Source: an uncultured Chlamydiae bacterium
GTDB lineage: Bacteria > Chlamydiota > Chlamydiia > Chlamydiales > Parachlamydiaceae
Direction of reading: 5' to 3'
NCBI GenBank assembly: GCA_963830365.1
Contig: CAWHMU010000018.1
Location: forward strand, 10,986 to 74,985
DNA length: 64,000 nt
Shown here: piece after piece, positions 59,729 through 60,775 of the stretch
Numbering within the stretch: position 1 is the first letter of the stretch
How the letters are laid out: every line of letters starts with the position of its first letter
Notes under the pieces: generated by a model
Told to the model about the DNA's origin: nothing
Databases searched by the model: none
What the model saw: the letters and a program-made list of their open reading frames with translations, nothing else
Translations under genes and position numbers: made by a program

Positions 59729-60775
59729 TTAACAAATTGTACAACCACGTCTCTTTTTATTTGCCTGTTGGTGCAAGGCAGCGACCTCTTGGGCTTGCCT
59801 GGCATAGGCGGCGCGAATAGCTTGGATTTGCGCGCTTTGCGAAGCGCATGTCTTTTCCACTTCGGCGCGCTTCTGTTCGCTCTCATCACATAATTGCTTT
59901 ACGCCCTGGATTTGGGCATGCAGGCTATCGGTTGTTTTTTTGTTGTTTTCAGCCATGCTTTCGATGCGTTCGCCGATTTTCTGTTCCTGCTCTTTAAGCT
60001 TTAGACTGGCCGCTTCGATATCTTTTTTGCTGGCTTTTCGTATCTCTTCTTTGAACAGGGCCGTATCCACGGCCGCCTGCTTGATTATCTCTGCTTGGTG
60101 CTTGATCTTTTTTAGTAAGATAGCATTTTGCGCCCGGTTATAATAATTGAAAAATTTGAGCGGGTTGTTTGCAGTGTTGTTGCCGAGGATGGCGCGATCT
60201 AAATAACGCGGCGCAGTAGTTGACGAAGCAACATCAGCAGAAATACAGCTGGTAGAAGCAGTATCACCTATTAAAGATTTTACCGACTCCATCCAGGCCA
60301 ACATCTCTTGGGCAAATTGATGCACTTTTGCAGAAAGCGCTTTGCCATCAAAAGGCGAGGTTTTGCTGAAGGTTTGATAGTCGTCTAAAATCCATTTCTC
60401 CCATACCCAGCCGTCGCTGCCCAACATAGGCTCCTTCAATGGGGCTCGATCAAGCGGGTTGATGAGAATGTCAAGTGCCAGTTCGTTAATGGCTTCTCTG
60501 CCACTCTCTGTCCATGCTTTGAACTCCTCCATTTCCGCCTCTTGCGGCAAATCGACTTTAAGAATTTTGGCTGTCCAGGCAAACAACTTGACCGATGTTT
60601 CATCATTCAATTCTTCGAAATTAATCGAAATTTCCGCTAAGCGGTCAAAGGCAGCGTGCCAGTCTTTCAAAGACTTAAGCTCAGGCTTTTGCACCATGAG
60701 GGTCAATGACATCGATGCTGCCATGTTAGCTAGTGCGGGTGCTTGCATGGTCATTGTTAGTGAACTGCTAGTCAT
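59729..60775 (-). CDS. U-box-like domain, coiled coil and polybasic CaaX (protein A2)
   Basis: ILINPLDRAPLKEPMLGSDGWVWEKWILDDY...TSPFDGKAL...HQFAQEMLAW. Ends NKKRRGCTIC*. Confidence 0.7.
   Translation of the reverse strand: MTSSSLTMTMQAPALANMAASMSLTLMVQKPELKSLKDWHAAFDRLAEISINFEELNDETSVKLFAWTAKILKVDLPQEAEMEEFKAWTESGREAINELALDILINPLDRAPLKEPMLGSDGWVWEKWILDDYQTFSKTSPFDGKALSAKVHQFAQEMLAWMESVKSLIGDTASTSCISADVASSTTAPRYLDRAILGNNTANNPLKFFNYYNRAQNAILLKKIKHQAEIIKQAAVDTALFKEEIRKASKKDIEAASLKLKEQEQKIGERIESMAENNKKTTDSLHAQIQGVKQLCDESEQKRAEVEKTCASQSAQIQAIRAAYARQAQEVAALHQQANKKRRGCTIC

Follow-up and report, generated by a model that had tools for sequence, protein, structure and literature searches.

A conserved CaaX box on a predicted U-box stalk protein encoded in a multi-gene cassette of environmental chlamydiae

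Does a C-terminal CaaX box on a protein of an uncultured Parachlamydiaceae bacterium act as a signal for lipidation by a eukaryotic host, and on what kind of protein does it sit? Host prenylation of bacterial proteins is known mainly from Legionella and Salmonella, whose SifA is a host-prenylated CaaX effector. The gene in question, called A hereafter, lies in a 64,000-nucleotide stretch of contig CAWHMU010000018.1, which was analysed as a whole and is referred to as the window. A preliminary description had read its product as a chlamydial U-box-like effector with a Ras-like tail, anchored in the manner of Legionella AnkB. The motif is indeed present at the end of gene A, where the minus strand from 59761 to 59729 reads AAT AAA AAG AGA CGT GGT TGT ACA ATT TGT TAA (NKKRRGCTIC and stop); the end coordinate first given, 59762, was one base too long. 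The layout of A is as follows.

59729..60775, minus strand: gene A (P0001), 348 aa, with an S/T-rich N-terminus, predicted helical bundle, predicted U-box fold, 142-residue helix and CaaX box.
59729..59743, minus strand: CaaX box CTIC with the stop codon, kept in 120 of the 150 relatives listed; yeast Ras heat-map score 15.7.
59744..59761, minus strand: basic patch NKKRRG, a putative lineage-specific second membrane signal, not kept family-wide.
59750..60175, minus strand: coiled-coil stalk, residues 201-342 of A, hydrophobic period 3.55-3.6.
60281..60466, minus strand: U-box-fold domain predicted by profile, model and Foldseek, residues ~104-165.
60467..60670, minus strand: three N-terminal helices of the model, residues 36-103.

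The CaaX box and its substitutes

The relatives of A are divergent (about 20-30% identity) and the family is unannotated. A single-sequence homolog search returned the query alone, a word-indexed alignment search one more protein, and a whole-genome search matches in 9 of 60 relatives. With a 14-row profile we detected this patchy family in 43 of 400 genomes of the chlamydial order and collected 676 representatives at 50% identity, 215 of them at E<=1e-30. The CaaX counts given here concern the best 150 of these 676, ranked by a profile that included the tail columns, which slightly favours CaaX. When the tail columns were left out, a U-box-only profile found largely the same loci (38 of 300 genomes).

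Conservation in orthologs was one of the checks that the preliminary description had proposed for its anchoring hypothesis, and the box is kept: a Cys occupies position -4 in 120 of the 150 listed representatives, all below 50% identity, against 0-5 Cys at each remaining position of the last 12 residues and a background frequency of 0.8%. The a2 residue is I, V or L in 118 of these 120 members, and the X residue is L (38), M (35), S (17), Q (14), F (6), C (5) or another (5). Among complete A genes with DNA available, the Cys is present in 48 of 62, encoded by TGT in 24 and by TGC in 24, and all three stop codons are used; since the codons are synonymous and the stops vary, the constraint acts on the protein. 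A Cys at -4 is rare in the other genes of the cassette described below (B 0/45, C 2/38, D 1/43, E 3/76). A chance C-terminus could be invoked because, under a loose rule, Cxxx ends are found on 50 of the 2070 predicted ORFs of the source genome for 30.5 expected, with positions -1, -2 and -5 also raised; the conservation among distant relatives refutes this explanation, whose probability we consider negligible. The CaaX box of A is very probably a selected prenylation signal.

What CTIC itself can do is indicated by yeast screens. In the Ras heat-map data (PMC10320760), where scores are averages over neighbouring motifs, CTIC reaches 15.7, compared to 19.4 for CVIM, 17.6 for CSIM, 12.8 for CTIL and 4.9 for CASQ, which is the usual level of canonical boxes that are prenylated and processed. 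On Ydj1, the same source gives 3.35 for a cut-off of 3, which is weak support, as most CXXX sequences were found there to be farnesylatable. In a GGTase-I screen at 37 C (PMC11304957), CTIC is intermediate (0.24, with CTIL at 0 and CASQ at 0.99), a value that does not settle between farnesyl and geranylgeranyl.

The K-Ras-like polybasic patch, which the preliminary description had joined to the box, is not a kept feature. At least three K/R are found among the 8 residues upstream of the box in 27 of the 120 CaaX members; at least three G/S are found there in 59 and at least three D/E in 19, and the net charge is zero or below in 73. In the lineage of A, NKKRR would add electrostatic membrane affinity.

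The 30 non-CaaX proteins among the 150 comprise 20 with a basic and hydrophobic tail (one doubtful), such as KKKKFGIF or RPWWKIF, one with a hydrophobic tail only and 9 others. On an unrooted FastTree phylogeny of 149 rows (a short one was dropped), from which the last 25 residues had been removed, the basic tail requires 10-11 changes, of which starred branches force at least 3. Monophyly of the 19 clear basic-hydrophobic tails was rejected by an AU test (p=1e-4) whose 22 comparison rows were chosen after the first tree was seen. As read from these sequences, the CaaX box has been replaced by a basic-hydrophobic tail more than once. At least one A copy carries one or the other in 52 of 54 loci, and 5 of 7 tail-less copies adjoin an anchored one. 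Tail-less copies with no anchored partner in view, or stop-interrupted copies, were seen at L010/L109 (G035), L037/L141 (G140), G217:C100, G221:C27 and G379:C179.

The window itself holds a tail-less copy.

62594..63514, minus strand: A', local duplicate of A, 306 aa, 33% identical, with a shorter stalk and no anchor.

As the preliminary description had stated, this paralog lacks the motif; it ends in RSLGVNN. Of the anchor gain or loss then proposed, we lean to loss. A' most likely lost its anchor after a local duplication, the simplest reading since CaaX is the majority state and A' is the sister of A (support 99) on the unrooted tree.

The source genome carries further boxes: 14 of its 2070 predicted ORFs end in a canonical CaaX, as defined by a rule taken from the A family, for 1.9 expected and 0-6 in shifted windows. 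One of the 14 looks spurious and was left out. The 12 proteins besides A, none with a Pfam family above cut-off, are otherwise unrelated and end in CVIC, CCLM, CVIT, CTIL, CIIL, CLIC, CIIC, CSIQ, CMIS or CVIA; they likely form, judging by their termini, a repertoire of host-prenylated effectors. In this genome (G000) they lie at C9:16827-18023, C46:3504-4865, C37:3467-3949, C36:138718-140062 (three tandem genes), C35:88698-91428 (two genes), C20:22580-22948, C10:51814-52923, C3:7194-8297 and C2:12191-13210 (sites L157-L165). An F-box-like stretch noticed by eye in the protein at C10:51814-52923 had no Pfam support and was discarded.

Could the Cys instead work inside the bacterium, through disulphide cross-linking in the envelope or a bacterial modification, and not be a host prenylation site at all? 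Chlamydial envelopes are cysteine cross-linked, and the fact that protein prenyltransferases (PF01239 and PF00432) were not found in the source genome carries little weight, this genome being 82% complete and PF00432 being detected in no control genome. However, the strict -4 position, the prenyltransferase-type preferences at a2 and X, the Cys-free basic-hydrophobic tails that serve as replacement and the excess of the same motif on unrelated proteins all speak against it, and we hold an intrabacterial role of the Cys to be very improbable.

Predicted fold of the A head and the ligase question

The 'U-box-like' reading of A is backed by both profile matches and the predicted fold. Searched against the PDB, the domain profile matched 8 sequences at E<=10, of which 7 are U-boxes: LubX at 1.5e-4 over two domains, and plant U-boxes, single-domain, at 0.05-0.3. 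The Pfam U-box PF04564 was not detected above cut-off in A, and Pfam searches on A, D and their neighbours gave coiled-coil noise only. The full model (pLDDT 86) comprises three helices, a strand-hairpin-helix unit (104-169) and one helix (201-342); helices 36-103 and helix 153-169 likely form a four-helix bundle in this model. A structure search with the whole model returned generic helical bundles, with no U-box in the top 50. With a U-box-only model of 69 residues (pLDDT 91.7), all the Foldseek rows listed were U-box or RING, at E-values, for so short a model, of 1e-3 to 4e-2, the best being E4B (probability 1.00, TM 0.74, rmsd 1.9, E 1.2e-3). Atlas searches gave RING/U-box clusters for A, all below 0.8 and taken as leads only, and none for D. 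These predictions together make a U-box fold of the A head (hairpin, helix and two loops, with no zinc ligands) highly likely.

Whether this head is a ligase is a separate issue. A hydrophobic E2-contact face has been described for RavN and CHIP, and RavN needs it for E2 binding (PMC5819833). The predicted E2 face of A, mapped through HMM alignment to PDB U-boxes, consists of L108, Y133, P141 and F142, and the triad is kept: position 108 is hydrophobic in 141 of 151 rows, 133 is Y/F/W in 118, and P141 is present in 130. On the same alignment, the position equivalent to the linchpin would be G144 in A; among the 151 rows it is Gly in 65, Asn in 21, Lys in 11 and Arg in 9, hence K/R in only 20. 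A cationic linchpin is common but not universal in U-box/RING ligases, and a non-Arg residue lowers or abolishes RNF38 activity yet occurs in active ligases (PMC12326332). Since this position is mostly not K/R, the ligase activity of A may be weak or lost. On sequence grounds, an active E3 ligase is plausible, with the chances about even.

The non-cationic linchpin also fits another explanation: A would be prenylated all the same, but the cassette would serve as a structural membrane machine, whether tether, fusion blocker, pore or spike, and the U-box would have no catalytic activity and act as a dimerisation head. The retention in A of the loop-1 hydrophobic residue, the helix aromatic and the loop-2 Pro, i.e. 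the very surface on which RavN depends (PMC5819833), argues against such a dead head.

The A-(E)n-B-C-D cassette

The neighbours of A in the window are the following.

58472..59683, minus strand: gene D, 403 aa, distant paralog of A (bundle, U-box-like domain, stalk) with a hydrophobic helix and Gly-rich tail and no CaaX.
56781..57365, minus strand: cassette gene of the variable E class (short coiled coil, variable tip).
55902..56636, minus strand: cassette gene B, 244 aa, helical and coiled-coil.
55368..55898, minus strand: cassette gene C, 176 aa, coiled-coil.
60981..62579, minus strand: 532-aa coiled-coil gene, grouped with the E class by BLAST clustering.
54297..55343, minus strand: 348-aa gene of a loose cluster whose members often lie downstream of the cassette, a possible cargo; coiled coils may inflate this cluster.

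The usual order is A-(E)n-B-C-D with A at the head; the window departs from it with a rearranged set of genes (A', E, A, D, ?, E, B, C). Of the 54 A loci, 46 contain D, 45 B, 36 C and 34 E; B-C-D stand side by side in this order in 32. These counts are limited by flanks and contig ends, and several loci share a genome. The homology of D to A extends over head and stalk (hhalign 99.4%, E 1e-21), and B has no detectable homology to the A head (hhalign 0.7%). The C-terminus of D carries a basic stretch, a hydrophobic helix and the Gly-rich tail; a 19-mer with hydropathy of at least 1.6 exists in 31 of 41 D proteins versus 1 of 62 A proteins. The D profile matches 45 of 400 genomes of the order, including 40 of the 43 A-positive ones, a co-occurrence that is partly circular, as this profile was built from A neighbours and the A and D profiles cross-match.

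Within a locus, the distance separating the conserved His of the U-box from the anchor correlates between A and D (Spearman 0.75, n=23), with a median difference of 10 aa, as would be expected for a parallel A-D coiled coil that has its two anchors in the same membrane; because the loci are related, p-values are overstated and shared ancestry could inflate this correlation. The N-terminal lengths of A and D do not co-vary (Spearman -0.24), and the lengths of B and C do not track the stalk of either. A complex prediction for A and D scored 0.24 and 0.01 for a mark of 0.32, with controls not folded, and was weighed neither way. An A-D assembly is, on these lengths and this synteny, somewhat favoured.

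The preliminary description had compared A to AnkB, and this analogy is right for the CaaX anchoring but not for a stand-alone effector, as A sits in a conserved cassette with a hydrophobic-tailed paralog. All the CaaX and U-box evidence would fit a host-prenylated but solitary E3 effector of the AnkB/LubX type, whose neighbours are merely co-transcribed effectors, and at some loci (e.g. L105, L132, L138 and L141) A is found without B-D nearby. The ordered B-C-D block, the frequency of D next to A, the partly circular co-occurrence across genomes and the A-D stalk co-variation go against it, and we judge a solitary effector unlikely.

The structural machine draws support from the D tail and from E. 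An HxH motif follows the coiled coil, near the end, in 33 of 76 E proteins versus 9 of 176 other genes, and such a motif is found in the metal-binding trimeric tips of phage spikes. In Legionella, LseA is a coiled-coil CaaX SNARE mimic (PMC7542358). However, the 25 best Pfam matches of A and D members include no SNARE family, and D and E match only generic coiled coils in the PDB. A purely structural role with a dead U-box is for us improbable, to about the same degree as the solitary effector. With regard to a SNARE motif of some 60 residues and its zero layer, no stalk column has a majority Q or R, and syntaxin is found only among the generic coiled-coil matches of D.

Several peculiarities of these loci deserve mention. 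Tandem arrays of up to seven E-class genes share their coiled coils and have hypervariable tips, many with HxH (L107:6925-9682, L111:225-3115, L104:3813-5724, L127:7875-16299, L128:9463-10722). Some D proteins have two to five tandem head domains (bundle and U-box-like) before one stalk (L152:4762-7731, L135:3907-5808, L119:912-2744, L117:3334-4974). The D tail (window 58475-58630, minus strand) shows two short Gly-linked stretches of alternating hydrophobics, often with a terminal F/I/L/V; by its sequence it could resemble a beta-hairpin or beta-signal, and an oligomer could form a small barrel. CaaX boxes (CSIM, CTIF, CTLF, CLIC) also occur on other near-cassette genes, one of the E class (L127:8401-8889, L133, L147, L113:4082-5548). 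Just downstream of the cassette (window 52288-52985, minus strand), 80-aa and 152-aa genes look like an antitoxin/nucleotidyltransferase pair; in L139, a homolog of the 152-aa gene lies close to the cassette.

The chlamydial origin assumed from the start agrees with the gene content of the window and with the record labels of the relatives' loci. The window carries sctQ (above cut-off), a Ser/Thr kinase gene and a secretin gene (sctC) in a row at 3348-10115, a type III cluster, and matches FabI and DnaQ models that we take to be chlamydial. A scan of 185,579 genomes, made with one narrow pattern and thus implying no absence elsewhere, gave 15 loci: 10 labelled Chlamydiae/Chlamydiales or a sub-taxon, 2 'bacterium', 1 Verrucomicrobiae, which has the same cassette, and 2 spurious. 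These two non-chlamydial loci (L115, L116) are short, have no ORF matched by the U-box profile, and were dropped. The cassette or part of it is seen in records labelled 'Verrucomicrobiae' (L107) and 'Chlamydia trachomatis' (L112), metagenome bins whose labels may be wrong. The family had no match in viral contigs or in plasmids, and a look-up of sequencing runs listed no RNA run and one DNA run, at a share of 0.06.

We therefore come back to our preferred reading, to which we give a probability of about 0.62: A would be a secreted, host-prenylated U-box stalk, held upright on a host-facing membrane together with the hydrophobic-tailed paralog D. This scheme is built on the fold prediction, the CaaX conservation, the cassette synteny and the anchor substitution. 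The N-termini of A proteins are S/T-rich and charge-poor (0.26/0.13 versus 0.15/0.19 genome-wide), as is typical of type III signals, and A would be exported by the type III system whose cluster lies in the window. Host FTase or GGTase-I would lipidate Cys345, and -TIC would be trimmed. A and D would pair in parallel through their length-matched stalks, with both C-terminal anchors in one membrane, and B, C and E may be further coiled-coil subunits. The least certain steps are the last ones, in which U-box heads about 20 nm off the membrane would recruit a host E2 and ubiquitinate nearby proteins, the A and D heads possibly being an active/scaffold pair. A is probably, from its genomic setting, a subunit of a conserved, multi-gene, membrane-anchored coiled-coil assembly that is apparently undescribed.

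A broader proposal is more tentative: many environmental chlamydial families might export a multi-subunit machine (A-E-B-C-D) onto a host membrane, with prenylated and membrane-inserted U-box stalks of matched length and variable HxH-tipped fibres. If true, A-E-B-C-D would be a mast planted in the membrane for ubiquitin ligation or membrane remodelling, its lipid anchor having repeatedly given way to a basic-aromatic peptide, and host prenylation would be a common, order-wide chlamydial targeting route. With its hundreds of natural variants that keep a strictly selected CaaX, the A family brings to light a U-box class that Pfam does not see, and its five-component cassette lends itself to reconstruction in yeast or amoebae. 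The recurrent exchange between CaaX and basic-aromatic tails amounts to a natural experiment on membrane anchoring and may point to hosts or compartments without available prenylation.

Comparison with known systems

Our literature search, with little coverage of subscription journals, whose reviews could mention predicted chlamydial CaaX proteins, listed no paper that deals with CaaX effectors in Chlamydiota or with the A-(E)n-B-C-D cassette. The words 'CaaX', 'prenyl' and 'farnesyl' are absent from the main texts of PMC4209131 and PMC12591485, which concern chlamydial NEX1b and Simkania SneRING, respectively. Both have, like A, ubiquitin-ligase-type domains and come from environmental chlamydiae. 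NEX1b, however, combines an N-terminal RING/U-box with LRRs and was found by standard HMMs, which miss the A family (PMC4209131); neither Pfam nor the model revealed a RING/U-box followed by LRRs in A.

The closest parallel for the anchor is AnkB, which ties a host-supplied CaaX lipid to ubiquitination and whose anchor is swapped in some strains (PMC13081727, PMC7542358, PMC5506055, PMC13423502). AnkB, the Legionella Pel/CMP effectors and Salmonella SifA and GtgE share with A a bacterial C-terminal CaaX for a host lipid. Unlike AnkB, A has a predicted U-box fold instead of an F-box with ankyrins and no recognisable substrate-binding repeats; indeed, no Pfam match to an F-box or ankyrin repeats was obtained for A, and its model contains no repeats. 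A also differs from the Legionella and Salmonella prenylated effectors by its 142-residue stalk, its chlamydial lineage and its conserved multi-gene cassette, and from those of Legionella by a presumed type III rather than Dot/Icm export.

LubX, RavN, GobX and NleG resemble A in their U-box fold with a hydrophobic E2 face, the identity of A to the LubX U-boxes being about 20%. Compared to these bacterial U-box mimics, A has Gly at the place equivalent to the linchpin, a U-box set between helices that likely form a four-helix bundle, a CaaX anchor with a predicted prenyl group, and a hydrophobic-tailed paralog. LseA has a coiled coil and a CaaX like A, and LegC3/LegC7 have putative Q-SNARE coiled coils (PMC7542358); relative to these, A is without a SNARE family among its 25 best Pfam matches and has a much longer stalk and a predicted U-box head. 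The tail of A resembles that of K-Ras4B and Rho, its four K/R preceding a canonical CaaX, but A has no GTPase domain and only a minority of its family shares the basic patch. As for the ClyA/Nhe/Mak alpha-pore-forming toxins, which have a multi-helix bundle with a hydrophobic hairpin at its centre, the A model has a single long stalk helix, and weak NheB/MakE matches of D (E 0.0015) span the coiled coil and tail among about 100 generic matches. Judged by sequence and predicted architecture, the A family belongs to neither the AnkB/Pel, the LubX/RavN nor the NEX1b group.
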